46,394 bases of DNA from Elsinoe ampelina (GCA_010093995.1 ML992515.1:5469-51862); one strand, 5' to 3'. Shown: positions 8,265 through 42,156, counted from the stretch's first letter. The notes: generated from the letters alone by a model not told the origin. Made by a program: numbers and translations.

Positions 8265-9414
8265 GGTTATAAGCCCGGCGCTTCTATAAAAGCACTTAAA
8301 GCTATAGCAAATTAAGCGTGTCATTATTAAAAGGATTACTAAGCTACCTATACTAAATTCTAGACTAGCTATATTAAGATAAACACTTATAGTAGCCTAT
8401 ATTAACTCTTTAATTAAATAGCTTAAATAGCTTAAACAAGCTAATTACATTAATTAAATTAATAGGCCTTTAGCTAATTACTATTATTATATCTAGATTA
8501 GTAAAAATACTTAAGACTTAGATTCTTAAGAGAGGAAGTAACTATAATACTTAGAGATTAACTCTTAAGGTAGTTCTCCTTAAAAAGGATATACTTAGAT
8601 ATATAATTTATAGTATTAACTAGATACTAGTAGTTATAAAGCCTAAAGAACTAGCTCTAGATACTAGTAAAGGCACTAAGGTAGTCTATAAGGTTAGAAA
8701 TAAAACCTAGTATAAGAATAATAGAATTACTTATAGTATTATTATAATAAGGATTTATAAATCTATTAGACCTTACTATAGTATAACTTAGAAGACTTTA
8801 AAGAAACTACTAAATATTATTAAAGCTATATTTAAACCTATTATTTTATATAAGCTATATATAGCTATCTATAACCTTAATAAGGTAATTATAATAAGTT
8901 ATAATACCTAAATATACTATAAAGATTTTATAAAGTACTATTATTAATATACTATTACTATAGAGTAAAGAGTAAGCACTATTAGTACTAAACTAGATAA
9001 GTTTAGGCTCTCTCTATACTATATTAAGACTATGTTTATTATAGGAATAAAGACTACTAAATAGTTAAGGAGCTAGAGATCTAGCCTTAACTATAAGAAG
9101 AGTCTTAAAGAAATAATAGACTCTCTTAGAATATAGAAGCCTCTATATAATAGAAGAACTAATCTAAACTCTATTTATAGAGTAGCTAGTTATATTAAGG
9201 ATTAATACACTTAGTATACTTATTATACCTACTCTAATATAGATTACTTTAAGTAGTACTTTAAGAAAGTACTAAAGAGTTAAAGTAAAAGAAATAACAA
9301 AGATAGATTAAATAATAAAGGTATAAAGGCTAAAGATAAAAGTAATAAGTTAAAGACTAAGAAAGTTAAAGGTTAAGTAGCTATTAAAGAATCTAAAGAA
9401 CCTACTAAGGTAGG

Positions 9415-9877
9415 TGTTACGAACTAGTAGGACAGCTAGAATATAGAGACGTTAGGACTAATTAAGCTACCGAGATTATTACGTAACCTAGCCCGATATT
9501 TACCTAGTTCTCTATCTTCTCTAGTAGCTCTACCTCTAAAACTATAGAGTACGTAGGTTACTAGCGGACGTGTACTCTATATTGCCCCTAACTCTCGCTA
9601 CGGAGTATATAGAGTATATAGAGAACATAATAGAGAACATATATATATAAGAATAGTCCTTACCTTATATAAGTACTATAGTTAACCTCGTCTAGATAGC
9701 GAACACTAGTATTACTAAGGCTAGCCTTTATAATACTATCTAATTGTACTTTATTATCTATAAGATATACCTTCTCTAACTCTTACTTTAGTGCTATACT
9801 ACTATAGAAGTAGAACTACCTTGTTCCTAGCTTAGCTTAGACTACTAGCGTAAGCTATATTTAGACAGTTTATAACA
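9415..9877 (+). repeat. Element A 5' LTR
   Basis: TGTTACGAAC...GTTTATAACA; colinear with 15970-16432. Confidence 0.93.
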
Positions 9878-9993
9878 TTTTAACTACCCTTACTATAGTA
9901 TAGCACGCTACGAGGTTAATAAGTAACTCTCGCTCTAAGTTACTATTAGCATCTTTAATTACTAGTAAGCTAGGAAAGCTTACTATTAACGAC

Positions 9994-11979
9994 ATGTCTA
10001 CTACTAGTTTAATCTTAGGCAAACATAGAAGGTCTTTTAGTATAGAAGGACAGAGTAGGCCTAAGTTAGAAGTAGAACTCTTCTACGGGGACTACGCCTA
10101 CTTAAGGCACTTCCTTATTTAACTTAAAGCCTTCTTCGCTCTAGAGAGAGATAAGTATAGCAACGACGTAGTAAAGGTTCTCTATACTAGGATACACCTT
10201 AAGGGCGCTACCTTCGAGTAGTTTAAGCCTTACATAAGTAGCTACCTAGATAGATAACTAGGCCTAGATACAAAGGCTATCTTTAAGAGCTTTAGTATCT
10301 TCTAGGCAAAGATTAAGTAAGTCTTTAACGTATCTAACGAGGAACACGTCGCTACGACAAAGATTTAACAATTATAACAACGTAGGTCTATAGTCTAGTA
10401 CTATTCCTAGTTCTAATAACTTGTAATATACCTAGACTAGGACGATAGTACTAAATACTTAGTATTCTATTAAGGACTAAGCGACTTAGTTAAAGACTAA
10501 ATAATACTTAAGCTACCCGATAGTCTTTAGAAACTAGTAGACACTACGATTGTTATTAATAATAGACTTTATAAACGACACATAGAACGTTATAGGGGAT
10601 ATAAGGCAAATACTAGATATACGCGTTTCTCTCGAAACTATAGAGACCCTATAGAACTTAATACTATATACGAAGGCTACTTCTTATAGGCACGAGGCTA
10701 CAGTTGTAGAGGAAAGTTCCTTAGTAGAAAAGAGAGAGAGAAGTATAGACAAGATAACTTATATTTTAAGTATAAAAGACCTAGGTATTAGGCTAGAGAC
10801 TACTAATAAGGGGCACTAGCCGATAAATTACATATAATAGTTGCTAGGCTAGTAGAAAAAAAGGCCGACACTACTATAGAAGACCTAACGACCTTTAGCG
10901 TAGGTAAGAAAACATAGAAGAGGTCTATAACGACTTAAGAGGTAATAGAATTCTCTCCGGATGTTACGCTTAACATCTCTATAACTAATAGCGAATAACA
11001 AAGCTAATATATAACGCTATTATAGATAGTATATTATAATAACTCTTATTATATTTACTTATTAGATAAGTAAAGATCTAGTTAGTTCCTATATAAGCTA
11101 TCTAAGCGTAAGTAACTAACAAAATAGCTAGACTAGGGGCTTAACCTAGAAAGGCTCTCTATAATTAGTAGTAACATTAACTAACCTTAGAAGGTAGTTA
11201 GCGATAATTACTAATATACGATTATTAAGACAAAGTATTAGGACGTAAGTACTACGTAATAATATAGTAGTCTTACCTTTAGCTCTTATAGTAAACTACA
11301 AGGAAAAGCGTATTATATATTACTCTAGAAATGTATAAATCTAAATTATAAATAGTACTATACTATCTACTTACACGATATACTCGGAGAAGACGCTATT
11401 AGTCTTAAATACACTATAGACTTCTTAGTAATTAAGATAGATAGTACTATTCTCTATAGCTAAGTAAAAGAATATACTTAGTATAGCCTTACTAACTATA
11501 ACTATACTAGAGGTAGTAGCGACAAAGAGAAATATAATAAAGAATATACTAAATAACTACGATATAACAATATAGATAAGGACTTATTTAACAACGACAA
11601 CGACGATGTACTACTATCGGGTAGACGACTTAAAGTATACCTTATAGGGATATAGAGGAATTATATAATAATATACACCTACTACTAGAATAGAACGTAA
11701 TAAGACAAATCTATATAACTTGTTTTTGTCTTTAATACTAACGCCTAGCTATACCTAGAAGAAATAGTTATACCTATACAGGTATATAACACTACTTAGT
11801 ACAACTAGTAGAGAATTATTAGACTTTATAGTTACTAAGGGACTTAGGCGCTAGAAGTTTACCTTACTATATTAAATAGCAACAAAACACAACTTACCTA
11901 ATAGATATAGTACTAATAGTAGATACGTATAGGAAGGGATTAGCTACTTATCTAAGGAGCTATAATAACAAAAAACTAG
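9994..11979 (+). pseudogene. Element A gag with a long C-terminal extension (661 codons)
   Basis: ATG at 9994. CCHC knuckle (L)CFKCGRPGHRARDC after de-RIP at 10759-10803. In-frame TAG at 11977-11979 directly after the slippery heptamer AAAAAAC (11970-11976). Confidence 0.78.
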
Positions 11980-14900
11980 CTAGTTATCGCCTAATAAGGT
12001 AAGACAATAACACTAGCTAAAGCCTTAATATAATAAAGATCTATACGTTAAACTACTTTATACTAGAAGTTGAAATATAAGAGAGTAAGGTAAGAGTAAT
12101 AATAGATTTAAGAGCTAACTATAGCTACGTCTCTACAATAGTTACTAATTAGCTTAAACCTTATTAACACTAGAAGGAGTTACCTTACCTACTTACTATA
12201 GCGGATAGAACCTCTATAGGGAAGAATAAGAAAGTTACTTAGGAACTACGAAACGTTATAATCTAAATCGGAACATACACGGAAAAATAATTAATCGATA
12301 TAGTTAATATATAGTACAATATAGTACTTAGTATAGACTAGCTTTAATAATATAATCTAGACGTAGACTAGATTAAAGAAACACTCGAATTCCCTAAGTG
12401 TAATTATAGAATATAGAGAGTATAATCGGCTCTATAGATACTAACTACAAGGATAGTATAGATACGACTAATAGTTAGAGCTATCGCTAGCGTAAGTAAT
12501 TAAGTACTTTCGCTAGAATATAAAGACTTTAAGGACTTGTTTAAAGAAAGAGAAGATATTATAGCCTTACTCTAATATAAACTATAGAATTACAAAATAC
12601 CTTTTAAAGAAGGTAAATCCCTAACACACTATTAAGGTCTTATACTACTATTGAAATAAGAGAAGAATATTCTTAAGAACTATATTGACAAGTACTTACT
12701 TAAAGGATTTATATAACTATTAAAATTACCTATTACGCACGGAGTGCTTTTTATACTAAAAAAGGATAGAACATTATAAATATACATTAATTACTAGAAA
12801 CTTAATACACTTACTAGGAAGAATTACTATTCTCTACTAAGGATCGACAAACTTTAAGACTAACTACTTAGAGCTAAATAGTTTACCGTAATTAATATTA
12901 GAGATGCCTATTATTAAGTATAAATAAAGGAGAGTAAGAAGTAGAAGACAGCTTTTAGAACGTAATAGAGTTTATATAAGTACCTTGTTATGCCCTTTAG
13001 GTTAACTAACGCTCTTATAACCTTCTAAGAGTTAATTAATAACACTCTATAAAAATACCTTAATAATTTTGTCTTAGCATATTTAGACAATATTATTATC
13101 TTCTTAAAGACGTATAATAAATATATAGGACATGTTTATAAAGTACTATAGAAACTAAAAGAAAAAGACCTACTAGTAAAACTCTCTAAGTGTAAGTTCT
13201 ATAAACATAAGATACAATTTCTAAGCTATGTTATATCTACTAATAGTATTAGACTCGATCTAAAGAAGATTAAGTTAGTAAACGACTAGCCGGAACCTAT
13301 AACAGTTAAGGAGGTTTAAGCGCTACTAGAGTTCTTTAACTACTACTATAAGTTTATTAAAGGATTCTCTAAGGTAGCTATACTAATATCTAACCTTACG
13401 AAAAAGAAAACTAGCTTTATCTTTAATAAGAGGTATAGGTAGGCCTTTAAGGAGCTAAAGCTTAGACTTACGATAGTACCTATCCTAGCACTCTTTAACT
13501 TAGACCGATAAGCACTACTAGAAACAGATGCCTCGGACTTTGTAATAGAAGCATATCTAGCGTAGAAAGGCATAGAAGGACGACGCTACTTAATTATATA
13601 CTACTTATAAAAAATAACCGGACTTAAACTTAACTATAATATATATAACAAGGAATTACTTATAATTATAAAAGTGTTCCGTAAATAGAGAGTATACCTA
13701 GAAGAAATAACCTTACCTATATAAGTCTACACTAACTATAAGAACCTTCTATATTAGACAATAACTAAGGTTCTTAATAGATAACAGGTTTAATAGTTAG
13801 AAACACTTATAAGCTATAACTTCTAGATCTACTATATTAAGGAATTAGAGAATAGCGGAGTAGACGCTCTTAGCTACTAGCCGGATTACTTAAAAAACAT
13901 AACAATAATAGAGGCCTCTATACTAAAGTAGTAGGATAGCGCTCTAGTCTATAAGCACCCGAAGGTAGAGTAGTTATATAGCCTTACCTAGAAGCTTACG
14001 TAAGAATAGAAGAAAGAAGTTATTTAAATATACTATAATAACTTAATAGTAGAACATAGTAGGATCGATAAGACTATTAAACTTATTATATAAAACTATC
14101 TCTAGAAAGAACTCCGAAACGATATTAAGATATATATTGCTACCTACGATACATGCTATAAGTCTAAGCACTTTCGACATAGACTATATAGCCTACTATA
14201 ACCCTTACTACTACCGGACAAACTATAGTAATTAGTTATAATAGACTTTATAGGACCTCTACTACTATTAGAAGAACCTCTTATAGGTATAAAGTATAAT
14301 AGTATTCTAGTCCTAGTAGATAGATTTACGAAGTATTACTACTTTGTCCTATATAAGATAATAGTAACTACTAAGAATATAGCCTTTACTTTTCTCTAAA
14401 TAATTGTTTTATAATATAGAGTACTACGAGACTTAATAACTAATAGAGATAAGCTATTTACATTATAATTCTAGTAATTATTTATAGATCTACTAGAAGT
14501 TAAATATAAGCTATTAATCTCCTTTTACCTATAAACGGACAGATAAACTAAATAGGCAAATTAAGTACTAGAGTAGTACCTACGATGCTATCTAAACTAT
14601 AAGTAAGACTTATAGGCGATACTATTACTACTCGTAGAGCTTGCTATTAATAATAGAAAGTTAGCAAATAGAATTTTACTATTCTATATAAACTATAGGA
14701 TATACCTAGATCTATACTATAATATACTTAGAATTAAGCTAGTATCTAAGGATGCTAATATACTAGTAGCTAATATTAAGAAACTACACGACTAGCTATA
14801 CTATAATATAGCATTTATATTACAAAGAATAGTAGAGTTTACTAACTAGAAGAGAATTACAAGACTAATTCTATAAGAGAGAGAGAAAGTTTACCTCCTT

Positions 14901-15350
14901 AGCAAAAACATTAAAACGAAACAACCAAGTAAGAAACTTAACTACACTAAACTAGGACCCTTTAAGATCCTAGAAAAGAAAAACAAGAACGTATATAAAC
15001 TAGAACTACTAAGACATATAAGGATTTATCTAGTCTTTTATATATTACTACTAGAGAAAGCACTATAGAATACTATACCTAGACCTATCGAACTAGAGGA
15101 AGAAACATAGGAGCTATAGTATAAAATAGAAAGAGTTTTATATTATAAACTTATAAAAGGAAAATACTACTATCTTATTTACTAGAAGGGACATTAGTAT
15201 AGTAAAGTAACATAGGAACTAGAGGAGTACCTTACCTTATAAGTAATTCTAGATTATTAGATTAAGAACCTATTCTAAGTAAACTAACTAGACGGACCTA
15301 GCACTCTAAACACTAAACAAAAACGAGAATGCCTAAGGAAGATTACTTAA
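11970..15350 (+). pseudogene. Element A pol (protease, RT, RNase H, integrase, chromodomain) in the -1 frame relative to gag; 3' end approximate
   Basis: De-RIP motifs: IDSGA ~12102, MPFGLTNAP at 12990, YLDD ~13080, ETDASDF ~13521, H..GH...C..C ~14030-14160, TDRDKLF ~14438, GPFKI ~14955, Y.VE...YLIHWKG...TWEP ~15120-15220. Confidence 0.88.
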
Positions 15351-15895
15351 CTAATAGAAGTACCTTAATTGTTACTAAGTAAGGAACTCTAATTAGAGTT
15401 AGGCATAAATAACTACTAGTCCTATAGTAGAACGGGATCTACCGACAATAGTATTTCCTTCTACTCTAAGACTTAAATATAGGTCTCTTCTAGAGAGATT
15501 ACTTTCTCTGTCTTATTCTCTAACTTTTATATCTCTTCGCGTAGGCGAAGCTTATTGCCTATAGCTCTTTAATAAGCCTCTTTTGCCTTTTTATAAGCTT
15601 CTTTAGCTTCTCTTCTAGTAGCCTTAGCTATAACTAATTCCTTTCGTAAATAAATATGCTTAGACTAAAGATGCTACTATTTTGATTTTGTTACTTAAAT
15701 ATTATAACTTAAGTAGTTACTTACGATATACTAGCTATAGATACTCGACTAAATATAGATCTTATAGTCTAGCTCCTTCGATTTGTAACGAGAATAAGCC
15801 TATAGTATATTAGTTCCGAATAGTTTAATAAACTCTAAGAGATTCTTTCGTATAGATATACTAGATTTGCTATATCTTTAATAACTAGAAGGCAT
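15350..15895 (-). pseudogene. Antisense accessory ORF of element A: six-Cys (Zn-cluster-like) motif plus coiled coil; end approximate
   Basis: ATG at 15895. De-RIP reading C-S-R-C-K-S-K-G-L-D-C-x8-C-x2-C-x7-C-D followed by an E/K/R/A-rich helix. Same ORF in element B from 35676. Confidence 0.6.
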
Positions 15896-15969
15896 ATTTA
15901 GTATATAGCGCGTAAGGACAAGGAAGAATACTTACTTGTTAGGACAACTCGATTAAAGAAGAAGAGTAA

Positions 15970-16432
15970 TATTATAAACTAGTAGGACAGCTAGAATATA
16001 GAGACGTTAGGACTAATTAAGCTACTGAGATTATTATATAACCTAGCCCGACATTTACCTAGTTCTCTATCTTCTCTAGTAGCTCTACCTCTAAAACTAT
16101 AGAGTATATAGGTTACTAGTAGACGTGTACTCTATATTGCCCCCGACTCTTACTACGGAGCATATAAAGTATATAGAGAACGTAATAGAGAATATATATA
16201 TATAGGAATAGTCCTTACCTTATATAAGTACTATAGTTAACCTTGTCTAGATAGCGAACACTAGTATTGCTAAGGCTAGCCTTTATAATACTATCTAATT
16301 GTACTTTATTATCTATAAGACATACCTTCTCTAACTCTTACCTTAGTACTATACTACTATAGAAGTAGAACTACCTCGTTCCTAGCTTAGCTTAGACTAC
16401 TAGCATAGACTATGTTTAGACAGTTCGTAATA
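15970..16432 (+). repeat. Element A 3' LTR
   Basis: 463 bp, preceded by the polypurine tract AAAGAAGAAGAGTAA and followed by TSD GTAGG. Confidence 0.93.
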
Positions 16433-16615
16433 GTAGGTAAATTAGATAAATGCTCTAATACTAATATTAATATTATTATACTAGTCTATAGAGTAGTAGT
16501 AGTGTCTATATTATTATCCTTAACCTATAGTAAGAATAGAGTAATCTATAACTCTAGTATATTAAGGCACTTTATTAAAGACAGGTTATAGTTCTTAATA
16601 ATTAAGGTATATAAA

Positions 16616-16756
16616 TGTTATATGTACTATAATAGTTAGTAATAAAAAGTGTATTAAGACATAGTTATATAATAATTGCTATAGAAAGCTATTTTAGGTT
16701 ATATATCCTACGCTAAGCCTTACGCTACGTAAGCTCTAGTTAACTATATAGTAATA
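16616..16756 (-). repeat. Putative 3' LTR of element C (~141 bp)
   Basis: TGTTAT...GTAATA is the RIP form of TGTTAC...GTAACA inverted ends. The adjacent TATCCCCTAG reads as a short polypurine tract on the minus strand. Copia homology stops here. No partner LTR in the window to confirm it. Confidence 0.45.
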
Positions 16757-16799
16757 TATCCCCTAGCTAGAGGAAAAGTGTTAATAACCTTATTAACTA

Positions 16800-19700
16800 A
16801 CTACTCTATCTCGATACTATTACTAACTATCTACTTTAAATAACTATCTTAGTTGTCCGTCTCTAACGCTTCTTAGTTATTCTTTATATCTATATTCTCT
16901 ATTGTCTCTCTTACGATTAGTAGTATCTCTATTGTGTCTATTACTACTCTTACTATCTTATTTATATATCGTGCCTATATATCGTATTCTTGTGTATTAT
17001 ATACGACTTGTCCTTCTATAGCTCTTACTCTTACGTCTAAGGCTTAGTAAGTAGTAACTACTATAGTCTCGATAGTATTATCTAGTATAGCTTATATAAT
17101 TTAGTTATATAGTACTAGTTAGGAGTAGAGGTTATAGAAGATCGATCTATAGGCACTAAACTTTCTCGTTTCTTAGCCCGACCTATAAGTCTTATAGTTA
17201 TAGAGATTAACTACTATAACTTATTCTAGTTAATATTTATTCTTACTAAGTTACTTATCTCGTATCTACTACTTAGTTACTCCTAGTAGTGTTATAACTA
17301 GTAGTTCCTCTATATATTTATATTAGAGGAGAGTTAGTTTACTACGTTCTTCTCTAGCTAGTAGTTAAGTTAGTTTATTTGTCTTTAGTGCTAATAGCGG
17401 CGTAGTAGATCTAGAAATCGAATCCTCGCGGAAGATTATATAGCTATATATATATAGTTACGCTTAGGATAGAGGTTTTGCCTAGCCTAGCTAAGAATAC
17501 TAGTTATTTAGTAATCTTCGCGTTAATAGTTGCCTTTCGCTTAGTTTCTTTTATATAAGTGTCTCTTACGCTAGTTAATTTTCCTTACTAAACTATTTAT
17601 AGAGATTATTTTTCTCTTATGCTTACCGCTTAGAAGGCCTATACTTATTAGCGTCGTTATAGTCTTCGTAGAGTTGCTTTAGTGCCTTCTATTCTTGCTT
17701 CTAAAGTTGTTCTAGTCTATTATACTAATTAAAACTAGTAAAGGCTAGTCTAGTTTAGTTTTTATTAAGAAATACGTAATCTAGTACTAGTTAGGTAGCA
17801 TCTATAGGTATAGGTTTTAGTAGGCTATATTAAACAAAGAAATCTTATAGTTTAGAGCTTAAGGTGTTAGTTAAGATATATTTCGTTTCTCTAGCTTCTT
17901 AAAAGGCTACTTCGAATTTATAGAGTTTAAGTTATAGATTATTATTGTCCTCTAACTCGTGCTACTTTAATTTAGTTACTCTAACATTACTTTCTTCTCC
18001 TATAAGGTTAATTATATTTTAAGCTAATAGTTGCTTCTAGAGAGTTAGTCGTAGTAGTAGAGTACTAGGTAGTAGTATATTATCGAGTTATTACTCTAGT
18101 TTCTTTAGAGTTAGTTACTTCTCTATAGAAATATTAGTTATGCTATTAAGTTATATTACCGAGTAGATAGAGGCGTTAGGTAGCTCTTAGATCTTATTAG
18201 GTTAAATTATAGTTTAGCTTTATAGAGGTTATAGCTTCTCTAGTGCCGAAGGTTAGTTAAGTTTCTCTAGAGGTATCTCCTCTAGGCCTTCCTAATTATT
18301 CTTCTTATTATATTACTTATATACCTTACATAGTACTAGTTCCTTTTCTAAATTCAGTTTCGGAGTTATAATAGCGTTTTTAGTATCCCTAGTAACGCTC
18401 TTAGTTATTTATTAGTTCTTTAATACTATAAGGTTAGTAGAGGTCTAGTTATTAACTACGATAAGACTAGATTCTCTTATAAGATTAGTTATACCTATAA
18501 TTAGGTAGTTGTCTTTATTAAAATTATCTCTGTTATATAGCTTATAGTCCTAGCTATTTACGTCTAACTAATTAATAATCTTATTAATAGCGCTTCTAGT
18601 AGAGACGTTATAGATATTCTATAGGGCTAGTATAGAGTTAACTAAGTCCCCTATTCCGTATACTACTGCCTTGTTAATTAGATCGATAGAGTTATAATTA
18701 CTCTAGACTATAGCCTTTAGCTTACTCTTCTACCTTTCGACTACTTCTAGTAGTAGGTTAATAAATTTATTCTTTTCCTATTTAAAGAAGCTTATTGCCT
18801 ATACTAGAAAAATTAGATAACAAGTGTTAATATTATATAGGTTAGTTTAGAGCGCTTAGTAGTAGGTATTCTACTTAGTTTATAGGAAAAGTTATATTAG
18901 GACATAGACGCTTCGTTTAACAGGTTAGAACTTCGAGGGGTATAGCCTAATACTAGCTAGAGCCTTATAAGTAGTGTAGTAGTTAGTTCCTTACGGTAGC
19001 TAGTTCTATACTATAGAGTTAGAGTATTTATATTTCTCTAGGTTAAGCTTAAGGCAACATTAGACTTCTAACCTGCTTAGGAGGTAAACTCTATAGGCTA
19101 ATACTACGACTTATTAGTGTTATTTGTTCTTAACTATATACGGATTTCTAAATAGTAGATAGTCTAGGCGTAGGAGTTAATTCTTATTAAAGATTCTAGG
19201 GAAATAGTAGTCTAACTTAGTAACTATAAACGTATTCTTATAGCGGATTATATAACTAAGTATAAAGCTATTAAAGTAGTACTATAGTAGAATTATAGCT
19301 AAAGGGAAATTAGGGACTAAGGCGTTAAAGAATTTCTTTACGTTATAATCTTTGTAGTTAATACTAAAACTCTTCTTAATATTATTAAGGTTATACTTTA
19401 TGCTCTAGAAATCCTTAGTTATACTAAAAGTATTAAAGATCTTAAGGTTCTTTTCCTCGACTATAGTACTCTAGCTAGTTCCTTAGCTTACATTAGTTAA
19501 CTTTCTCTTATAGCCTTATTTAGTTTTCTAGTTGTCTTTCTTACTAGGCGTTAGAGTACCGCTAGCGCCTATATCGATAGGTTTACGCCTTCTAGTTTTA
19601 GTTAGCTTACTCTTTAACGTAGAGGTTTTTAGTTAAGGTTATATAACTTATTATTTAAATTCCTTAAGCTTTCTATCCGATTATTCTCTAGTAGTATTAT

Positions 19701-22430
19701 ATCTCGTAATAAACTTACTTTTAATTTAGTTATTCTTTGTTAGAGCTCTTAGTAACTTTATTAATATAACTAGGTCGTATATATACTATATAGGTACCTT
19801 AGTATTATATCTAGAGTATCTTTAGAATATTAAATACTTTACTATTTTATGTAAAGTAGTCTAGTGTTCTATAATTTCTTATAATAGCAAGTCTAGGTTA
19901 CTTTTAATTTTGTACGCCTTAATTACTTTCTTCTAGTAGTTTAGTAGTTAAGTAAAGTAGGCGTACCTTGCCTAACTATAGAGTAGAACATATAACTAGT
20001 AGTTTATATAACTAGCGTTATTATTGTTATATACTAAAAGCCTCTAGTAATAGTTAGTAAGTAAAATATGTTTCTCTATTATAATTATAACTAGCCTAAA
20101 ATAGTTAATCTTTAAGAGAGGTTCGCTATCGTTATTAAGCGCTAGTTCTTCTTTAATCTAGATTTGTTCTAAGAAGTTTATTATAGTTTCTGTCTTTTTA
20201 AAACGTATTAACTCTCCTTTAGAGAATTTAGGTTAGAGTATTATCTTTATTATAGGTTCTAACTTGTTATACTATAGGTTCTTATTCTAGGTAGTATAGA
20301 GCTTCTATATCTAGTAATTATAGAATCTCCTTACTTCGTCTATATCGAGGAGGCTAACCTATCCTAGAAGAGTAGCGAGGTTCTTAAGGCCGTCTATAAG
20401 ACCTCTCTACTCTTTTAGTATCTCTTTAAGTTATACTATCTCGATAAAGACTAGTTTAGACAACTTATACTCTTAGGCGATTAATTTAAAAATTATACTT
20501 ATAGTTACTCGGAAGTGTACTACGCTATAGCCTTATAGTAGATACTATAACCTAGCTTTACTAATTTCTTTAATCTAGAGGTTAAGGATAATAAAGGCTA
20601 GGGGGTATAATAGTAGATAGTCTACCTTCTAGTTGTAGTTAAACTTTAAGATTAACCTTTCCTAGTTCTTAACTTTATAGATCTCGACTAGTTCCTCTAC
20701 TAGGTTATAGTTTAGTAGATTATATATCTTAGTAGAGAGGTCTCCGGGATTAGTATAAGTATTAATATATAGGTACCTTACCTATACCTTCTTATTGTTT
20801 CTAAATATTAGTCTCTTATAGAGTATAAGAAGATAGTTAACTATAATAACATTACTTAGACAAGATTCTTTAATCGCTTCTAACTTCTTAATGCTAGTCT
20901 AGTCTAAGTATAATATATCTATAACTTTAATATTAACTTCCGGGCAGTTTAATAAAATGTCTTTAGTTACTTATTTTAGATTAACTTCCTTTTCTCTCTC
21001 TCTATTATCTATTAGCTTTTCCTATAACGTATTAGATTAGTCCTATTCTTCTAGTTCTACCTTTACTTTCTTATAGTTCTACTATACTTAGAGGTTAGCG
21101 TACTTCTCTCTTATTCTTTTTAGAATACTATATAGCTTCTTTTCTTTAGTTAAGGAGTTCTACTTATTAAGTTATTAAAGAATATACTTAGCTATAACTG
21201 TCTTCTATAGGTTGTCTACTTTGTCTAGGAGAAGAAGTAGAACCTTCTTATATTATTTCTTATCCTAACTATAGGCCTTAAATGCTACTCTAATTATATC
21301 TCTTATTATGCCTATTATTAGTTATTGTCCTACGAAGAACAGGTATAGGCTCTATTTAGCTAGTGTTCTATTACTAACCTATATTTAGTAGTTATCTACC
21401 TCTACTTTCTTACTCTTAGTCTTTTTTATATCGGCTTAGGTTAGGAAACCTAGAACTTCGGTAGCGAAGTCTCTATTTAAGGTTAGTAGTTTCTAGATGT
21501 TACGTTAATCCCTATAGATTAATAGGGTAGATACTCTAGCCTAGAATACTTTTAGGAGGTTAGTAAGTTTAGAATCTTTCTTAAGTAGAGTAATAGCTTT
21601 ACCTATAACTTCTTTTATTATTAGTATATAGTTAAGCGAAGAGTAGTTATAGTTAGAGAAATCTTTATTAACTTCTAGTACTTCTAGGACTAACTAGAGT
21701 TCCTCCGAAAGGTCTATAGAGTTATTCTTACTAGTAGAAGATAGAGTAACTTTTAGTTCCGCTAGCTTCTTCTTCTATATTAGGCGTAGTATATCGGCCT
21801 ACTATCCCCTATAGTTATATAGTACATTTAGCTAGCTATTAGTTAAGTTAAGCTTAGTTATATTATTAACTAAATTCTATAGGGATTTTTTGTAATTAGT
21901 TTTATTATATAGCTATTTTATCTCGTCTCTACTAGTGTTAGTAGTTTCTATTTAAGTGTTTAACTCGTTTATTACTTTTATAACTATGTTAGCTCTACTC
22001 TTACCCTTGACTATTAGCCTTACTTAATGTTAGTCTCTAGCTCTTTAAAGTTCTAGTCTTCTAGTTATAGGTCCGAAGCCTTTCTTAGTTAGTAACTTCT
22101 TAGCTAGAGGTCTTATCTATACGACTAGTTTCGTTTTAATATCTTATTCGTTTAAGTCTTTAGTTACTTTTGTCTATACTCTAGTAATTTGTAGAATAGA
22201 GTTTATTTTTACCTTCTTTATAGGTGGCAGTAGTTGTTTAAGTTCCTTAGAGAGTATATACTTCTTAATTATAGTACTAGTTATATGTCTAAGGTTTATA
22301 AATAATAATTCCTTAGGTAAGGTAATAGAATTATAAGTTTATTAATATTTCTTCTAGAGGGGCACGTTCGGATTAGAAATAGCTAGAAGGTAAATTATGT
22401 AATTTATAGAGTTATTAGACATCGGCTAAG
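16800..22430 (-). pseudogene. RIP-degraded coding-like region of unknown product(s), downstream of element C pol
   Basis: Long minus-strand stretches whose stops are mostly TAA/TAG, explicable as RIP-hit Gln/Trp. Composition is helical/charged. No transposase, RT or other motif recognised. Confidence 0.4.
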
Positions 22431-22501
22431 ACTAACTCCTTTTACTTAAACTTAGATTTTAGTTATTGTCTTTAGTAGCTATACTCTCTAACGATAAGTC
22501 T

Positions 22502-23688
22502 TTAGTGTAGATAGCGGCGTTTATAGTCTTATATAAGGCTAGTTACGTCCCCTAAGTCTTTAATATCGTACTACGTATTGTTCTATAAGCTATATCCTTT
22601 CTATTTAACTAGATATTAAGTATACGCTTTTCTCTTTCTTATTACTATACGTTTATTAACTAGTACTTTAATTTCGTAAGAATCGTTATTATCTATAACC
22701 TTGTTAGAAGTCTCTACTAGCTCTAGCTAAGTATAGTCTATAACCTCGTAGTTATATAGGTCTTTCCCTTTCGGCGCTAGTTCTAGTTATTAAACTATAA
22801 CAACTAGATAGACATTTTTTAGTCTACCTATTATTTCTAACTTATATGCTATATATCTAACTCTTTATTCGATAGTAAAAGGGCTAGCGAACTAATTACC
22901 TAATTTCTTTAATTGTCCTAGAACCTTATATCTATAGTAGAGCCTTAAATAAACCTTGTCCTCTAGTTAAAACTTAATATCTTTATATTTCTCGTTGTAA
23001 TATTATTTCTATATTATTTGTGCGAAGTGTAGCGTATCTTCTACTAACTAGCGATTTTACTGTCTTATTATAACTAAGTCTCCCTTTAGTAAGCTATCTA
23101 ATTAGTTTACTAAATTAAAGTTTAGTTTACTTCTAAAGAGGTACTTATTAGGCGATATGCTTATACTTATATTATCGCTGTTGTTTATTATAGCTTATAA
23201 TTAATTAAGGTAGGAATTTTAACTAGACTCTAGTTAATTAGTATAGTAGTACCTAATAGCTATCTCTACTATTTAGTTAGTCCTTTCTAATTGTTTATCT
23301 ATCTATAGGTGCTAGACCGTTACTATAAGTATTTAGACTTCTATTCGGTAGAATACTCCTTTCTAGAATCCTAATAGAAAAAGAGAATCTCTATCGGAGA
23401 TAAACTAAGAGAGAAACTCCTACTTATACTACTCTATCTAATTAATCTAGGCCGCGCTCTATTCCGTAGCTGTCTAAGTTAATCTACCCTTTATAAATAA
23501 AATACATTTACTTGCCTTATAGGTTTATATTATTAGTTTGTCGTAACTATCTAGAGTTATTAGTAGTTCTATAACAAAATTAGCTACAACTATATAGTAA
23601 GGTATATTCGGAACTAGAATAGGTTAAAGTTAACTATTAGACTTATAACGAGGTAGCTTGTTTAATAAACAAGTATAATAATGTCTAA
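22502..23688 (-). pseudogene. Element C integrase core, GPF motif and chromodomain
   Basis: De-RIP readings: ISDRDPLFLSGFW, HPQTDGQSERTNQTVEIAIRYY, GDKVYLRLHHGY, AGPFTI, VHPV, QYLVKWKGYG..DDTWY..EDL; one apparent frameshift near 22625. Confidence 0.87.
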
Positions 23689-23891
23689 TAATCCTAACTA
23701 GTAAGATAAAGAGGTTAATTACGTCTATTCGTTAAGATATTAAGACTTAGAAGAAGAAGAAGAAAACTAGTATATAAAGCATATGTAATATCGAGGGCAG
23801 AGTAGCTAGAAGCCTAGGCTACGATACTAAGATTACATAACTAATCTAAACTAGATCCTAACTAAATCTAGTTCGTATCTATCTTATATTA
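23689..23891 (-). repeat. Element D 3' LTR
   Basis: Colinear with 29758-29960; ends TAAT...ATTA (RIP form of TGAT...ATCA). Confidence 0.9.
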
Positions 23892-26800
23892 CTACTTCTC
23901 CTCTTAAGCGTATTTACTCTTAAACGCTATTATATATTATTTATTAATCTATTTCGGCCTTAGCTTATCCATATAAGAGTCTAAATAGTTACGTAGCACA
24001 TTAGCTACTCCTTTAAGGTTGTTAATTAGCTACTAGGTAAGATTCTCTAGATAGCTCTTCTAGCTTATATAAGTAACTAGCTTCCCTTATAGTATACATA
24101 TATTAATTACATCGTCTACCTTATACTCTTCCTTACTATCGACCTCTACTAGAGGTAGTTCCTTAAAGGCTTAGCCTAGTAGAGAGTTATTTAGGTGCTT
24201 AGTAAGGAGGTTAGCGTAGAACACGGAGTAAATCCTTTATAGAGTAGCTAGTAGATTAAGCTTATACACTAATAGTAACTGTTTTTCGAGGATCTTATAA
24301 GGACTAACATGCTTTAGTAGTAGCTTTAGATTGCCTAGTAACTAGAGGTTCTTTGTTAATAGCTAAACTAAATTACCTACCTTAAACTCTATTAGCTAGT
24401 AGTGTCTATTAGCTTACTCTACTATTCGTAATTAGGTAATAGCGAGGTTAGTCTTAGTAATAGCTAGCGCTTCTTCTAGTTACTTAGTAAGGGCGTAAAT
24501 ATTAGTCTTATTTAGCTTAGCTCTTATTAATAGTGTATCGAAAGAGAGCTAGAAGCTTAGCTTAGACTTATATCCCCTAGTAACCTTAAATAGTAATAGC
24601 TTTATACTTTCTAATAGGCTAGTATTAGCGGAGAACTCTACTACTAGTAGAATAAGAGTCTAATTACTAAAACGTATAGTATATAAATAAATAACCTACT
24701 TAAACTTGCAATTTATAACCTCTAATTAGCTATCTATTTATAGATGCTCTATAGTAGATAGTTTAGTAGTAATCTTTAGGATTTAGTAGAGCCTTTTCTA
24801 TACGTCGCTAACGAACTAAGGGCTATAGTTAGAGGTAATACTATCTAGTAGGCCGTATAGTCTCTAAACATAGAAGAATAATAACTTAGTAGTCTTAAAC
24901 GCTAAGGTACCTCCTTCTCTAGAGAAGTAAGAGATTAAGTGTCGTTCCTTAGATAAGTAATTAATAATATATAGTACTATATTATAGCTATCTACTAAGA
25001 GTAGGCTAGTAACGAAATCTATAGTAATATGTTACTAAGGCCTTTCCGGAATAGGCAATAGCGATAAGAGGCCGGCTAGTAAACTATAATAAGCCTTTAA
25101 ACGCTTATAGTTATAATAGTTAGCGACGAACCTCTTAATATTACTATTATATCTAGGGATATAGAAAGTAAACTTTATTATAGTAGCTATCTTAGTAGCT
25201 CCTACGTATATATAATTCTTTAATGTATAAACTCCTTAGATAACCTTTATAGCTATAGAGAAAGGCACGATTAGTTAGCTATCGGCCTATAGTATTCCCT
25301 TTTTAATTATAACATTAGTCGATAGTAGCTATTTCCTCTTTAGGAAGACTTCTATTATATAGTAGATGCTACGAACTGTCTTAAAATTAAGGTCTTATAG
25401 GTTAGCTTTAGCTACTTTGTCGAAAAGGGGTAAAGGCTCTTTTATAGCTAAGATAGGTGCTACGTAGATGTCTAGTTTAGTAGCTAAAATAAGCACCGAT
25501 ATAGGTAGTAAAATAGAAGGTAAAATAGGTAACGAACTAGACAATAAACTAGTTCGCGAACTAGATACTAAACTAGATCTTAGTTCGGCTTAGATTAGTA
25601 ATCTAGTTTAGATACGACCTAGATTTAGTTTATTAATAATATACTAATCTAGCACCTTATATAGTAGTAGTGTCTAGCGTAGATTAGAGTTTTCTTTCGA
25701 ATATAGTATATCTCTATTCCTCCTTATAAGTACGTCGGCCTTACTATTAGTAGCGCTAGGCCTATATATAATCTTAAAGTTAAACTACGTAAGATAGAGA
25801 GCCTAGCGCGCTTAGTAGCGCGACAGCTTCTAAGTCTTTATAAAGTGTATTAAGGATTAGTAGTTAGTAAGAATATAGATAGCCTTATTAGATTAAGTAC
25901 TTATAAGCTTAGGGGTCTACTTCTTAAAGGCTTAGATAATAGCTAGTAGTTCCTTATCGTAGATAGCGTAGTTACGTTTAGCTTTATTTATAAATTTACT
26001 AAAAAAGGTAATAGGCTAGAGAATATTAGACTTATTATATTACGACAGAATTCTAGTAGTAGTAGTGTCGGAGGTATCTATCTTAAGGACTATCTATTTC
26101 GAGCAATCGAAGTACGTAAGGATAGACGCGCTTATAATAGTATACTTTATATAATTAAATATAGTAATATACTTATTATTCTATAGTATAGTGTCCTTCT
26201 TAAGTAGATTATTTAGTAGCTTAGTAATAGTGCTAAATCCCTTAATAAAGTAATAATAGTAGCTATAGAAGCTATAGAAGCTAATAAAGCTTCTTACCTA
26301 AGTAGTATTACTAGAGGCTAGCTATTTCTACACTTATATAGCTTCTACCTTCTTAGGATCTATCTTAACTCTATCTTAGCTAATAATAATACTAAGGTAC
26401 TTTACCTCCGTTAGGTAGAACTTACTCTTCTTAATATTAGTATTTAGGCCTAATTTATAGAGCCTCTAGAGTACTAGCTTAATATGCTTAGTATACTCTT
26501 AGTAAGAGTCGTTCGTATAGATAAGAATATTATTTAGATAGATTAACATAAAGCGCTCTAGTATATCGACAAAGTTATAATTTATAAATCTCTACTAGAC
26601 TATAAGGGCATTAGTAAGGCCGAATAGTATTACTAGCTACTTAAAGTTGCTTATATATATAGAGAATATAGTAAGATCTTTACTATTAATAGAGTTATAG
26701 AGGTAGTAGAAGGCTTAATAAATATTAATCTTACTAAACTATTTAGCCTTACTTACGCGTGTAAGTGTTTCTTTAATAAGAAGTAGAGGATAAATATCTT

Positions 26801-29757
26801 ACTTAGTTACCTTATTAAGGCTATAGTAGTTAACGTAGAGATAGAGTTCTTTATCTAGCTTATAAACAAAGAGAATAGATAAGGAATAGCTAGCGGAACT
26901 TAGTATAATAAAGCCTTTATTAAAATATTCTTAGATAAATTATTCTACTATATTAAGTTCTTCTAGCAATAGGTAGTATAAAGGCTCTATATATAGTAGC
27001 TTAGTACTATCTTTAAGTATAATACAGTTGTTAAAATCCGGCCGATACTAAGGAAGTATATTAGATTATTCTTTAGAAAAGATATTAGTAAACTCTTAAA
27101 GCTTCTCTAGGAGAACTACTATAGAGTCTAGTTCTAGTTTAGAGACTATTTAGTAGTAATCCTCGATGTTCTTTACTAATATTATAAACACCTTATTCTT
27201 TTAGTATTTAGCTACTAATATAAAGGTAATAGCACTAATAAAGGCAATAGTTAGCTCTTCTTATTTAGCATTACTTACGTAGGTAAGTATATAGAAGAAC
27301 TTATACATTAACTAAGTACTATAGGAGATTAGCTTAAACTCTCTATAATTTAGCTTAAAGTTCGACCTAAGAGCTAGTAGTTAATATAGTCTAGTTCGTT
27401 CTAACTTAGTAGCCGAGCTAGAACTTAGTTTATAAGTTAGACTAGAACTAAACTAGTTCTAAACTAGGGCGGCGGCTCTACCGAGCTAGATTCCTAGATC
27501 TAAGCTAGGCTTAGATCTAGATTCTAGTCTTTTAATTAGCTATAGTAGCTCTTGCTTAATAACTATCGGCGAAAACTCTTCTTTATATATAACTTAGTTG
27601 TGCTTATAGTCGATAGTAGCTCTATTAGCCTTAAGTTAGCTAAGGCTAAGAATAATATTAAATTAGCTAATATCTATAATATAAAAGGTAGTAAGGTTAT
27701 TTAGCTTACTAGAAACAGTAGTAGTAAGGGGAATACTATATATAACTTACTCTATTAGAACACTATTATAGGCTTAAAGCTAAATAGAACTAGCTAGTGC
27801 TATAGAGTAGCCGAAGCTCTTTAGCTTATTAAGGATGTTATAATTAACTACGGCGCTAATAAGCGCGCTAGTGTCGATAAAGACTTAGAGCGTAATAGTG
27901 TAAGAGTAGTTATAAGAGTTATAAATAGTAATAGGAGTTATAATAGCGAGGATATAGTAGCTAATAACGCTGTTTATTAAATATACACCTCCTCTAGATC
28001 TATCTCGAATTACTCTTATTCTACTAGAGAATAGAACTTATCCTCTAGCTACTCGTTTCTCTAGCTAGAGTAGCTAGTAGACTTATAGTCTATTTCGGAG
28101 TTAAACTAAGGCTAAACTAGATCTAGTTTATAGGCCGAACTAGTATCGACCTAGTTACTTAATTCGGCTAAGCAATTCTAAAGCTACTATATCTCCTCTA
28201 TAGCGCTAATATATATAGGGCATATAGTAGCGTAAGTAGCCTTCTCTAAGGCGCTAGCTATATACTTAGTAGAGATATATCTAAGCTTACTATATATATA
28301 ATAGGTAAGTGCTAGAGCTAGATAGAAAGGCTATAGAGCACCTCTAGTAATAGAGTAGAAGGTAGGCGGAGCTATAGGTATAGAGGTAGAATAAGGTACG
28401 TAAGTAGGTATAGTAGCGGCGTAGCTTATAGCTAGTATAGAATATAAAGCCTAAGTACGCTTAGTAATAAGATTATTCTATTAGATGTTATAGTTAGTAG
28501 CGTAGGCCTTAGTAATAAAGGTAGTAAGGTTATTAGTGTCGTAGTTAACTAGAGCATTACGTAGCTTGTTAGATATCTTCTAATAGATCTAGTATAGCTA
28601 CTTCTCTTTAGTAATCTTAGTATAAAGAGTATACTTATTAAACTTACTAATAAAGGAGTTAAATATACTATTACGCTAGAAGAGATTAGTAAACTAAGTA
28701 TATAGTAGCCCTATAGTTAAGATTCTTAAAGCGCTAGACTAAGAAAGTAAGGACCTCTTCGACGCTAATAACGTTATTACTAGCTAAGTCTATAATAAGA
28801 GTATAGGCTTCTCTAGAGAGGTATAAGTATAGATAGGTAAACTAGGTATCTCTTATAGAGAAACGATCTACGTTAGTGTATATCTTATTTCTTATCTAGT
28901 ACTTAAAGACCTTAAACTACTCTAGTATACCTGTACTAAAGATAGTAGAGTCTAGTATCTTTTCTAATAAGGTAGAGCCGCGTATAGAAAGAGCTAGTAT
29001 ACTATACTCTATCTCGTTTCTTAGTTAGTTTACCTTAGCCTTAAGCTTTTAGATTTTGTCTAGGTAGTAAGTAGCTTAGGTAGTAACGCTATTAGTATAG
29101 AACTAAGATACGTCTAGTTCGAATTAGAGGTTACTAAGCTAGGCCTAAGTAGTATCTAACTTATAGTAATAGTAGAGAGCGTTAGTATAAGTGCCTTTTA
29201 CCTACGTAGTCTACTTATTATAGAAGAACTTAATATAGTTAAATATGTCTCTTAGTACCTATATACTATACTCTTTCTATAGCTTCTTAAGAAGTATAGC
29301 GTTAGAGAAGGCAAAAAGATTATAGTAGAAGAAGTAGATAGAAGTATTATTATTATTAGGGATAGGTTAAGGTAGCTTATTTTAGTAGCGCTCTTCGTTA
29401 CTATAGTTAGATTAAGCTATGCTTAGTATAGTTAGTTATAAATAAAACAGTGTAAAACGTTAATATATAACAAAGAGAATATTAAAATTTTTAGCTAGCG
29501 GCCTACTTCCTTTAAGAGTTATCTATAACTCGACTTATTACCTTCTTCTTATATCTTTAAGGTTTATAGTATTAACCTATATAGCGGCAGCGAGAATCTA
29601 TTATAGTATACGTAGGAACTATAGTTATAATAGCTTCTTCTTTAATTCTTTAATTCTTTATAAGTAATAGTTATTAGTAGTTACGTAAGTAGTAGAATAA
29701 CTAGATAGTTTAATAGCTCTATCGCTTAGTCGTAGTTATTTTAAAGTCTCGATATAG

Positions 29758-29960
29758 TAATTCTAACTAGTAAGATAAAGAGGTTAATTACGTCTATTCG
29801 TTAAGATATTAAGACTTAGAAGAAGAAGAAGAAAACTAGTATATAAAGTACATATAATATCGAGAGCGAAGTAGCTAGAAGCCCGGGCTATAATACTAAG
29901 ATTACGTAACTAATCTAAACTAGATCCTAACTAAATCTAGTTCGTATCTATCTCGCATTA
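29758..29960 (-). repeat. Element D 5' LTR (repeated at 32759-32961 inside the gap duplication)
   Basis: 203 bp, colinear with 23689-23891. Confidence 0.9.
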
Positions 29961-32137
29961 TCTAATATACTTTCTAAGCTTATAGCTTAGGTTCTTTATG
30001 TATATAAATGCTATAAGTTAGTTATATATATAGTTAAAGCCTAAATAGAAATAGTTATCGTACGCTTATTAGAATAGTTCCTTTTTAAGGTACTCCGGAA
30101 TATATAATCTCTCTCTTCCGTCCGTAGAGTTCTTATAATAGAGCAAATTATCTTTCTAAAAGAAGAGATAGTTAATCTATACTATATTTTCTTCTATAGG
30201 TTATTCTTTAGCTAGTTAACTTCTCTTTTCCTCTGCTAGCTTAACTAATTCGAGAGTCTTTATCTAACTATCCTCTCTTAAAAGGCTAGCTTTAAGTTCC
30301 CTCTTAAAGTCTTTATCTAGTTTAACTAGTATAGAGTAAAATATATAAGAGAAAAAGTTAAGGACCTTCTTAGTTATATCTCTAGTAACCTCTTCTTTTA
30401 AGGAATTAGATATTAACTAGCTTAATACGTCTAGGATTTTGTATATTCTCCCTAGTCTATATTAAACATCGAGCCTAAACTACGATAGGTAGTTAGCTAC
30501 GTATACTAATTTAAAGTTAAGCTTATTAGTTAAAGTTATAGTTATTAGGCTATATTATTTTAAAATAGCTATTATAGTATAATAGTCCGTAAAGATAAAG
30601 ATGTTCTTTTTACTACCTTTAATTATATAGTAGACCTTATAGACAACCTAAACTAGTCTAGCTATTTCGAGTTCTATAGGCTAGTAATATATCTCTACGT
30701 CTATTAAGGCCTTACTTAAGAATATTATTAGTTCTATATCCTTGGCTTTGAACTTTATTACTTTACTATTCTCTATAATAGGTTAAGAGTCTCTCTTAAC
30801 TATATAAATAAGTGCTTTAATTCTAACTCTAGACATGTCTATATCGATATATAATTATTAATTAGAGTTAGAGTGTCGTAGGAATAAGTAGTTATAGAAC
30901 TAGTTCTAGAGCGTCTTAAAGGCCTTATAAGCCTTCTTATTATCTTACTTAACTATTGTTTTTTCCGTGTACCTTTTCCGTAAGTTACCTTTAGTACTTA
31001 GGCTTACTTTTAGTAGTTGTATTTTCTTCTTCTATAGTAGTTCGACAATCTAAGCGTAGTAGGGAATATATAGCCGTATAAATCTAGTTAACCTAAGGTA
31101 GTACTCTAGGTCTTTTAGGTTCTTTAGGAACTCTAGTGCTAGAATAGCTTTTAGTTGTTTCTTTTATATCGATATACCTAGGCCTAACACCTATTAGCTA
31201 AGTAGTAAGACTAATAGGTAGCCTATAAAGGTCTTTTTAGAGCTAATACTAATTCGGTGTATAAGTAAGATTAAGTAGACAAGTTCTAGATGTTCTATAT
31301 GTTTCTCGATAGTTGTACTAAAAATAATAATATTATCTATATAGGCTCGGCAAAATCGCTATAATTTCTATAGGATCTTATCGAGTATCTATTAGACGTA
31401 CTATATACTACTACTCTAACCTATTAGAGCTATAAGGAATTACTCTTGTCTACGGTAAGTGTTTACTATAAACTTATACCTTTTACTCTTCTTAGTTAAC
31501 TATTAGTAGAAGAATATAACTATATCTATAGTTATAATATACTTTACACTACGTAGAGCCGCGATTAGGTCTAACTATAAAGGAACAAGGTAGCTATTCT
31601 TTTAACTAATCTTATTAAGGCTACGAATGTTAACTACTAGTTTACCTTTTCGTTTTAGCTTCTTATTAACTAGGACGTCCTTCTATACTATAAAGACTAG
31701 GAACCTAAAAGGCGTTAGGCAAGTTATAAACTATATCTTACCTTCTATATAGAGTTTATTAAAAGTATTATCGATAACCTGTCTAGCTAGAGCGCTTAGT
31801 AGGTAAAGGCGAGTTAACATTATTAATACCTTCTTTTCCTAGCCTTCGATTAATAGTATCTCTATTCTCTTACTTTCTAGAAGATTAACTATTATACTCT
31901 TATCTATCTATAACTTACTAAATTTTTCTATAAGAGCTATAAGTTATACTACTACTTATAGTTCTTCTATATATATTATAATTCTATTTAGTAACTTTAC
32001 CTCTATTGTAGTTAGTTAGACTATTAGTAGTTTATTTAGCCTCTCTATAATATCTTAGTCTAGGAGAGGTTATATATTTCTTTCTAGTTACTTTTTTCCT
32101 AAAAGCGCTTCTAGAGTATAGTCTTCGTTAACCTAGT
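29961..32137 (-). pseudogene. Element C pol: RT, RNase H and integrase zinc finger (repeated at 32962-35138)
   Basis: De-RIP readings: AYIDDIVIF ~31320-31346, YIDVD ~30835-30852, YWPTELE ~30665-30690, VFTDH ~30583-30600, AHD..FHLGF ~30035-30065. Confidence 0.85.
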
Positions 32138-35100: not shown

Positions 35101-35138
35101 TAAAAGCGCTTCTAGAGTATAGTCTTCGTTAACCTAGT

Positions 35139-41100: not shown

Positions 41101-42156
41101 AATAGAATACTAAGTGTTTAGCACTATTATCCTAGTCTAGGTATATTATAAGTTGTTAGAACTAGGAATAGTATTAGGCTATAGACCTACGTTGTTATAA
41201 TTATTAGATCTTTATCATAGCGACGTGTTCCTCGTTAGATACGTTAAAGACTTACTTAATCTTTGCCTAGAAGATGCTAAAGCTCTTAAAGATAGCCTTT
41301 GTATCTAGGCCTAGTTATCTATCTAGGTAGCTACTTATATAAGGCTCGAACTACTTAAAGGCGGCGCTCTTAAGGTATATCCCGGCATAGAAGACCTTTA
41401 CCGCGTCGTTATTATACTTATCTCTCTCTAGAGTAAAGAAGGCTTTAAGTTAAACAAGGAAGCGCCTTAAGTAGGCATAGTCCCTATAGAAGAGTTCTAC
41501 CTCTAACTTAGGCCTACTCTGTTCTTCTATACTAAAAGACTTTCTATGTTTGCCCGAGGTTAAACTAGTAGTAGACATATTATTAATAGTAAGCTTTCCT
41601 AGCTTGCTAGCGATTAAAGATGCTAATAGTAACTTAGAGCAAGAGTTACTTATTAACCTCGTAGCGTGCTATACTATAGCAAGGGTAGTTAAAATGTTAA
41701 AACCGTCTAAACATAGCTTATACTAGTAGTCTAAGCTAAGCTAGGAACGAGGTAGTTCTACTTCTATAGTAGTATAGCACTAAGGTAAGAGTTAGAGAAG
41801 GTATATCTTATAGATAATAAAGTACAATTAGATAGTATTATAAAGGCTAGCCTTAGTAATACTAGTGTTTACTATCTAGACAAAGTTAACTATAGTACTT
41901 ATATAAGGTAAGGACTATTCCTATATATATATGTTCTTTATTGTGTTCTCTATATACTCTATATACTCTATAGTAAGAGTTAGGGGTAATATAGAGTACA
42001 CGTCCGCTAGTAACCTACGTGCTCTATAGTTTTAGGGGTAGAGCTACTAGAGAAGATAGAGAACTAGGTAAATATCGAGCTAAGTTACGTAATAATCTTA
42101 GTAGCTTAATTAGTCCTAACATCTCTACATTCTAGCTGTCCTACTAGTTCGTAACA
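35139..42156 (-). mobile_element. Complete second copy of the element A family, element B (7018 bp), inverted, inserted in element C pol
   Basis: LTRs at 35139-35601 (3') and 41695-42156 (5'), TSD CTAGT (35134-35138 and 42157-42161). Reverse-complement colinear with A but with different RIP mutations. Confidence 0.95.
35676..36225 (+). pseudogene. Antisense Cys-cluster/coiled-coil ORF of element B; end approximate
   Basis: ATG at 35676. Retains an unmutated TGC (tct cgt tgc aaa = SRCK) where copy A has TAC. Confidence 0.6.

Follow-up and report, generated by a model that had tools for sequence, protein, structure and literature searches.

In the usual view, long terminal repeat (LTR) retrotransposons require no genes other than gag and pol, and the question raised by the locus described here is what a further 5.66 kb of DNA represents directly behind the pol gene of one of them. 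The locus lies in a stretch of 46,394 nucleotides from Elsinoe ampelina (GCA_010093995.1 ML992515.1:5469-51862), referred to below as the window and numbered from its first letter, which contains the remains of nested Gypsy elements, labelled A to D. A preliminary description of this DNA had proposed that 16,616–22,500, after the chromodomain of element C, carries unknown cargo open reading frames (ORFs) of an oversized Gypsy element. The results presented here show that the region is the relic of a real coding sequence, a single ORF on the strand of pol. The reading that we favour, with a probability of about 0.55, is that this extra ORF is a sense additional ORF (aORF, or ORF3) of C, a long chromovirus of low copy number.

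The coding character of the region is seen in one minus-strand frame, whose codon first bases fall at coordinates divisible by 3 and whose stop density stays low from ~22,640 to ~16,800 with no frame change. Its first remaining ATG occupies 22,422–22,420, 79 nt behind the pol stop of C; since repeat-induced point mutation (RIP) erases ATG codons, the true start may reach ~22,640. Over 1,886 codons this frame has 8.1 stops per 100 codons, compared with 13.4 and 15.2 in the other minus frames, and it lies under the value for the lowest frame in all of 200 first-order Markov simulations, the minimum of which was 9.5. Its 152 stops comprise 82 TAA, 70 TAG and no TGA. In-frame TGA was considered as a marker of stops not made by RIP and is uninformative, because TG has been erased in all frames. 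The preliminary description had noted long coding-like frames on one strand; their coding-like nature and their position on pol's strand are upheld, while the suggestion of several ORFs gives way to a single frame of ~1,880 codons.

One antisense frame is equally open (7.7 stops per 100 codons), and so the strand was settled by the pattern of purines and pyrimidines, which survives because RIP makes transitions only. Purine fractions at codon positions 1, 2 and 3 are.614,.527 and.529 in the extra ORF and.604,.506 and.541 in C's pol; the antisense of the extra ORF copies the antisense purine profile of pol, and the purine content of the sense strand is 0.55–0.56 in both. Within the frame, G makes up.19 of codon position 1 and.09 of position 2. 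A codon-position model, for which the pol frames of the four elements A to D were the sole training set, was applied in bins of 300 nt. Of the minus frames, it prefers that of the extra ORF in 18 of 19 bins; the scores of this frame sum to +49.8 nats, and those of the best plus frame to +8.9. At coordinates above 22,500 the model favours the pol frame instead.

The searches made with the predicted product found no known protein that resembles it. Pfam searches of all three minus frames of 16,401–23,700 gave no transposable element domain in the extra ORF, as had been claimed at the outset, and a search of its own frame at E values up to 10 gave no family. Word-based searches with the whole translation found no match among proteins of 1,037–3,301 aa or among those of 30–1,036 aa, and none was found among PDB sequences at E up to 10. 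Metagenome scans with the extra ORF, and with the piece of C that encodes reverse transcriptase (RT) and RNase H, returned pattern matches and no relative. As a control, the equally mutated pol pieces of C match the RT and integrase of A, B and D in the window (E 2e-7 to 6e-3); the extra ORF matches only itself. No internal repeats were found in it, and no further copy of it within the window.

Several more specific identities were considered. A second Gypsy gag-pol was rejected, as there is no RT or integrase and no match to the pol genes of the window; Copia elements and long interspersed nuclear elements were checked via Pfam only. An Env-like protein of the errantivirus or Athila type is argued against by the missing internal repeats and by the lack of a membrane anchor, no segment of 19 residues among the 1,886 having a Kyte-Doolittle mean of 1.8 or more; a hydrophobic N-terminal stretch is seen by eye in the translation. 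A transposon with terminal inverted repeats (TIRs) or a Helitron is not supported either: neither LTRs nor TIRs nor terminal direct repeats border the extra ORF, AT-rich inverted matches occur at chance level and never at both ends, and there is no match in Pfam, in PDB sequences or, for codons 1–1200, by phmmer, although RIP makes the domain searches less sensitive. A periodicity of 34–35 residues, indicated by weak hydrophobic autocorrelation, failed in a BLOSUM self-comparison and by region. AlphaFold2 modelling of codons 1–600 as a single sequence gave an unusable result, with a mean pLDDT (the confidence score of the model) of 35.

The element that precedes the extra ORF is better defined. 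Judged by its predicted domains, C is a chromodomain Ty3/Gypsy element with the order RT, RNase H, integrase SH3 and chromodomain. The frame for RT and RNase H matches 14 Gypsy polyproteins in the protein collection, tblastn places the Gypsy RT of C at 31,676–31,035 (E 1e-9), and the piece with the end of the integrase and the chromodomain also matches the integrases of A (9e-7) and B (6e-3). No Pfam match was obtained for the integrase core. Because of RIP, all Pfam scores of C fall under the gathering cut-offs; the order of the domains is nevertheless correct. Without its insertions C amounts to 7,068 + 2,177 + 4,233 = 13,478 nt, provided that all of 42,162–46,394 belongs to it, in keeping with the earlier estimate of at least ~13.5 kb.

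A range of observations links the extra ORF to C indirectly. Both it and pol are on the same strand, they agree in purine skew and codon-position make-up, and they follow one another closely: the chromodomain ends at 22,514, the pol stop is at 22,504–22,502 (it had been placed at ~22502) and the first ATG is at 22,422, with no boundary structure between them. At its other end, the frame of the extra ORF runs to within ~30–180 nt of the break in a plus-strand frame that belongs to the neighbouring element on the left. The extra ORF is saturated with RIP, with a TpA/ApT ratio of 2.08, a (CpA+TpG)/(ApC+GpT) index of 0.15 and 23 TG left in 5.66 kb. It is also multicopy, and short contigs hold other versions that are 88–98% alike, the differences being nearly all transitions. 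The earlier claims that 16,616–22,500 is uniformly RIP-mutated and that it was multicopy are both borne out by these results. In contigs that stem from other copies of C, 23,681/23,683 is joined straight to 29,959/29,961; these contigs skip 6,277 nt and represent the empty site of B. These joints imply that B entered the present copy after C had multiplied, and that C itself is repeated. Among the 15 joints listed, some copies of C skip B and none skips the extra ORF; among the joints and loose ends listed, none falls at 22,422–22,504.

Read depth in two public runs, X1 and X2, points in the same direction. Taken as a rough contrast, summed contig depth over the extra ORF is ~460–870 in X1 (mean ~670) and ~670–1,420 in X2 (mean ~1,090), with all bins covered, and over the integrase and RT pieces of C it is 800–960 and 950–1,540, respectively. 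Identical single-copy unitigs have depths of ~160–215 (X1) and ~320 (X2). The neighbouring families are of another order, with 27,000–69,000 for B and 84,000–137,000 for the LTRs of A and D, that is 30–150 times above the extra ORF and C's pol. By this rough measure, the extra ORF is present in ~3–5 diverged copies, and it and pol are both few-copy sequences (~3–6) among very high-copy families. Taken together, these observations tip the balance modestly towards the extra ORF being part of C.

Other observations weigh against this assignment. The two runs come from one sample, which is probably the source of the window, and are not independent; summed contig depth gives no copy number. The depth of pol is 1.2–1.4 times that of the extra ORF, so at least one copy may lack it, and among the contigs listed none from another copy spans 22,422–22,504. 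The exhaustive phmmer search, which gave no match among 1.84 billion representatives, covered codons 1–1200 of the 1,886. No relative was found anywhere, and a moderately conserved domain could be hidden, because RIP leaves even C's own RT at only 24 bits in Pfam. Neither 16,431–16,900 nor 44,800–46,394 has a partner within the window that would make up an LTR pair of C, whose 5' end may be located outside the window. Neither an LTR pair nor a primer binding site, a polypurine tract (PPT) or a target site duplication (TSD) of C was found within the window, and the ends of the element, with the place of the extra ORF inside them, are therefore putative. An LTR and PPT had been proposed at 16,616–16,766, and this proposal was not confirmed: the segment has no second copy anywhere in the window, and the purine run at ~16,765–16,759 is AGGGGA, of 6 nt, whereas A, D and B have PPTs of 11–12 purines.

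Between 16,432 and 17,346 there is no run of 9 or more purines. An element boundary near 16,600–16,640 is still plausible, because the plus frame of the left-hand element, which is open across the empty site of A to ~16,590, then breaks (~16,590–16,640). The broader proposal of a Gypsy lineage with accessory genes survives in part. A chromodomain Gypsy element, a long same-sense gene unlike known proteins of transposable elements, and similar depths for the two are all observed; the plural 'cargo ORFs' is not retained, and no LTR pair around both was found in the window.

Different models can be proposed to explain an ORF in this position. One of them holds that it is the coding region of an unrelated mobile element or repeated gene, for example a Helitron-like or other large single-ORF element, which either abuts a 3'-truncated C or was inserted between pol and the PPT. 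It draws on the fact that no LTR of C was found, so that C may be truncated at ~22,500; a domain of a transposase or helicase could have been obscured by heavy RIP, much as the integrase core of C escapes Pfam, and placement on the same strand has a 50% chance alone. However, there would be room for only ~80 nt upstream and ~30–180 nt downstream for the remainder of such an element, and no TIR, LTR or flanking direct repeat is found there above chance. Its codon-position and purine make-up equal those of C's pol, and its depth is near that of pol and far from that of every other family in the window. The absence of joints and loose ends at 22,422–22,504, among those listed, and the absence of any Pfam family even at E up to 10 add to these objections, and we consider this model unlikely.

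A second model, in which an intronless retro-copy of a host gene landed once behind the pol of C and was copied by segmental duplication, so that it would be a passenger that does nothing for the element, appears quite improbable. The few copies (~3–5 by rough depth), the single intronless frame and the lack of relatives among retroelement proteins would all suit it; but no host-gene family is recognised either, and the purine-rich sense strand fits the retroelement genes of the window rather than a recent capture. Copies of C without B predate the insertion of B and are 88–98% alike, which is compatible with either route. It is hardly credible that there was never a gene and that base composition and RIP together produced the frame bias. 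A simple estimate from base composition gives ~8.5 stops per 100 codons, and the observed 8.1 counts as no lower than this; an antisense frame is as open. But the Markov simulations, which keep the TpA excess, never went under 9.5 in 200 runs, one frame persists over 5.6 kb, and both the sense and antisense profiles mirror those of a proven pol gene.

If the extra ORF is an aORF of C, as we favour, then 16,616–46,394 would be one dead copy of this element, with B and D inserted in it, and C would carry a single intronless sense ORF of ~1,880 codons between its chromodomain and its 3' end. The gene would have travelled within the RNA genome of C, which would explain how 5.6 kb came to be without an intron or frame break. 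As with other genes that follow pol in LTR elements, its expression may have relied on a subgenomic RNA, made by splicing or by internal initiation. The predicted product would be an accessory protein of large size, soluble and not bound to membranes, which would serve the element in trans, perhaps as a scaffold or as a host-interaction, silencing-related or anti-silencing factor, rather than as an Env protein or a replication enzyme; any specific role of this kind is improbable when taken singly. The sequence has been duplicated a few times and inactivated by saturating RIP.

Additional genes are uncommon in such elements and give insight into how these deal with their hosts. To our knowledge the extra ORF, if read correctly, would be the largest post-pol accessory gene of any LTR retrotransposon. 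A sense gene bigger than pol in a fungal chromovirus would widen the picture of such genes, and the product, of ~200 kDa, would possibly be a factor of a new kind, encoded by the element and serving in host interaction or against silencing. More tentatively, and at slightly less than even odds, C may represent an undescribed lineage of fungal chromoviruses with its own third gene, in sense, of ~1,880 codons, larger than pol and outside known protein families. For the present, the value of the locus is that of a lead for whole-genome and cross-species work, within the limits set by a dead sequence that cannot be placed and by the missing ends of the element.

The features of the locus are collected in Table 1. 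The map of elements was built from a self-comparison of the window and inspection of ends.

Table 1. Features of the nested repeats in the window, with the extra ORF first.
Feature	Position	Strand	Remarks
RIP-killed extra ORF	16,800–22,422	-	one frame, ~1,880 codons; end uncertain by ~100 nt
Non-coding tail behind the extra ORF (putative 3' LTR and PPT of the preliminary description)	16,616–16,766	-	ends ..CA at 16,617–16,616
Element C	remaining pieces 16,616–23,683, 29,961–32,137 and 42,162 onward	-	
Predicted chromodomain of C	22,678–22,514	-	PF00385, E 4.7e-4, 20.5 bits, cut-off 25.1; profile positions 1–53 of 53
Predicted Tf2-type integrase SH3 of C	22,799–22,960	-	PF24626, E 1.6e-4, 22.2 bits, cut-off 30 (Pfam, frame 22,504–23,698, which also holds the chromodomain)
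Predicted RT, RNase H and start of integrase of C	29,961–32,137	-	RVT_1 3.5e-5 (~31,640–31,221), RT_RNaseH_2 7.2e-6, RT_RNaseH 2.9e-3 (Pfam, frame 29,954–32,135)
Upstream part of C, weakly supported	42,162–45,300	-	protease-like motif at ~42,940 (by eye in translation) and long gag-like low-stop frame
Gypsy A	9,415–16,432	+	7,018 bp; LTRs ~450 nt; TSD GTAGG
Gypsy B	~23,684–29,960	-	~6.27 kb; 199-nt LTRs 23,686–23,884 and 29,755–29,953, 93% alike; RT and integrase by tblastn
Gypsy D	35,139–42,156	-	high-copy; same family as A, 92% identity over 7 kb; TSD CTAGT; RT and integrase by tblastn; nested in C, not part of C

The window is an AT-rich block (GC 28–33%) of nested, RIP-mutated retrotransposons with short GC-rich islands at either side. 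B is a high-copy element nested within the integrase of C and is not part of C. Close to it, 29,407–32,397 is repeated at 100% identity (2,991 nt) at 32,408–35,398, with ten Ns (32,398–32,407) between the two. The repeat is almost certainly an artefact of assembly or scaffolding and not a tandem duplication, because true repeats in the window are 92–94% alike and because of the ten Ns.

The TSD of D shows that the DNA from 42,162 onward is continuous with C. Neither Pfam nor tblastn gave a match in 42,162–45,300, and Pfam gave none in the plus frames of 43,000–46,394. Upstream of the protease-like motif the low-stop frame extends over ~2.2 kb (43,100–45,300), which is long for gag; in 44,320–45,280 the codon model trained on pol favours the plus-strand partner frame (+21 against about -4 nats). 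This part, which has no Pfam match on either strand, may represent a gag of exceptional length or else a gene in antisense.

On the left of the extra ORF, a plus-strand coding-like frame with ~5 stops per 100 codons (8,400–9,414 and 16,438–16,600) is interrupted by A and stays open for 51 codons past its TSD. The element to which it belongs was labelled Copia in the preliminary description, and Pfam gave no match that supports this label; a depth of ~11,000 in the bin 16,547–17,093 suggests a high-copy family. Further to the left, 1–6,026 holds several copies of one repeat, 65–78% alike and in both orientations. The least mutated copy (GC 0.44–0.52, ORF 575–1315) has a weak match to DDE_1, a pogo/Fot1-type transposase (E 6.7e-4). 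Between 6,000 and 8,320 there is a GC-rich (55%) island without RIP marks, with four successive minus-strand ORFs of 155–231 aa and no Pfam match, which may be a single intron-bearing gene bordering the repeat block.

Additional genes in LTR retrotransposons have been described in several groups of organisms. For fungi, Zhao et al. reportedly described in 2011 an additional antisense gene, brtn, in Boty-like Gypsy elements of Botrytis cinerea. Compared by description only, C would resemble these elements, as a fungal element of the chromovirus type, in having a third gene placed after pol and ahead of the 3' LTR; brtn is small and antisense, whereas the extra ORF is very large and in sense. 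In the literature searched, no fungal Gypsy element with a large sense post-pol ORF was found, the small antisense brtn being the only case for fungi; this is weak evidence, since most subscription journals and Repbase lay outside the search.

Among Dothideomycetes, the closest element by size is RLG_Rolly of Leptosphaeria maculans, likewise an over-long, RIP-affected Gypsy, which is listed with 11,875 bp, an LTR of 235 bp and 594 copies in Table 4 of PMC3105345, the part of that source drawn on here. The comparison is one of size and copy data only, and Rolly differs in being high-copy where C has few copies. The sizes of A (7,018 bp, LTR ~450) and B (~6.27 kb, LTR 199) match no Leptosphaeria family in the same table (PMC3105345).

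In plants, according to the accessible portion of PMC7264820, the kind of aORF met most often in LTR elements is in sense and located between pol and the 3' LTR, and aORFs occur in low-copy and high-copy families alike. As far as this portion describes them, the sense aORFs of plant Ty3/Gypsy elements (e.g. env-like genes of the Athila/Tat type) resemble the extra ORF in lying behind pol, in sense, and, as proposed for C, just before the 3' end (PMC7264820). Here, by contrast, the host is a fungus, and the ORF has ~1,880 codons, no membrane anchor and no detectable family. Env-like ORFs are usually several times smaller than this.

Extra coding sequence is also known from giant Gypsy elements such as Burro of planarians and Ogre of legumes, in the extract of PMC6431247 that was available. 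On the same extract, the extras of Burro, placed between gag and pol in the same frame, contain domains that can be recognised as host or viral, and Ogre owes its size largely to its LTRs and to a 5' ORF (PMC6431247). C differs from both in the one separate 3' ORF that it probably carries, and in measuring at least 13.5 kb and not 25–35 kb. Bdelloid elements likewise capture extra ORFs, as stated in the accessible text of PMC5408684. Set beside these systems, C is probably an LTR retrotransposon with an additional ORF, a known kind of arrangement in a variant form.

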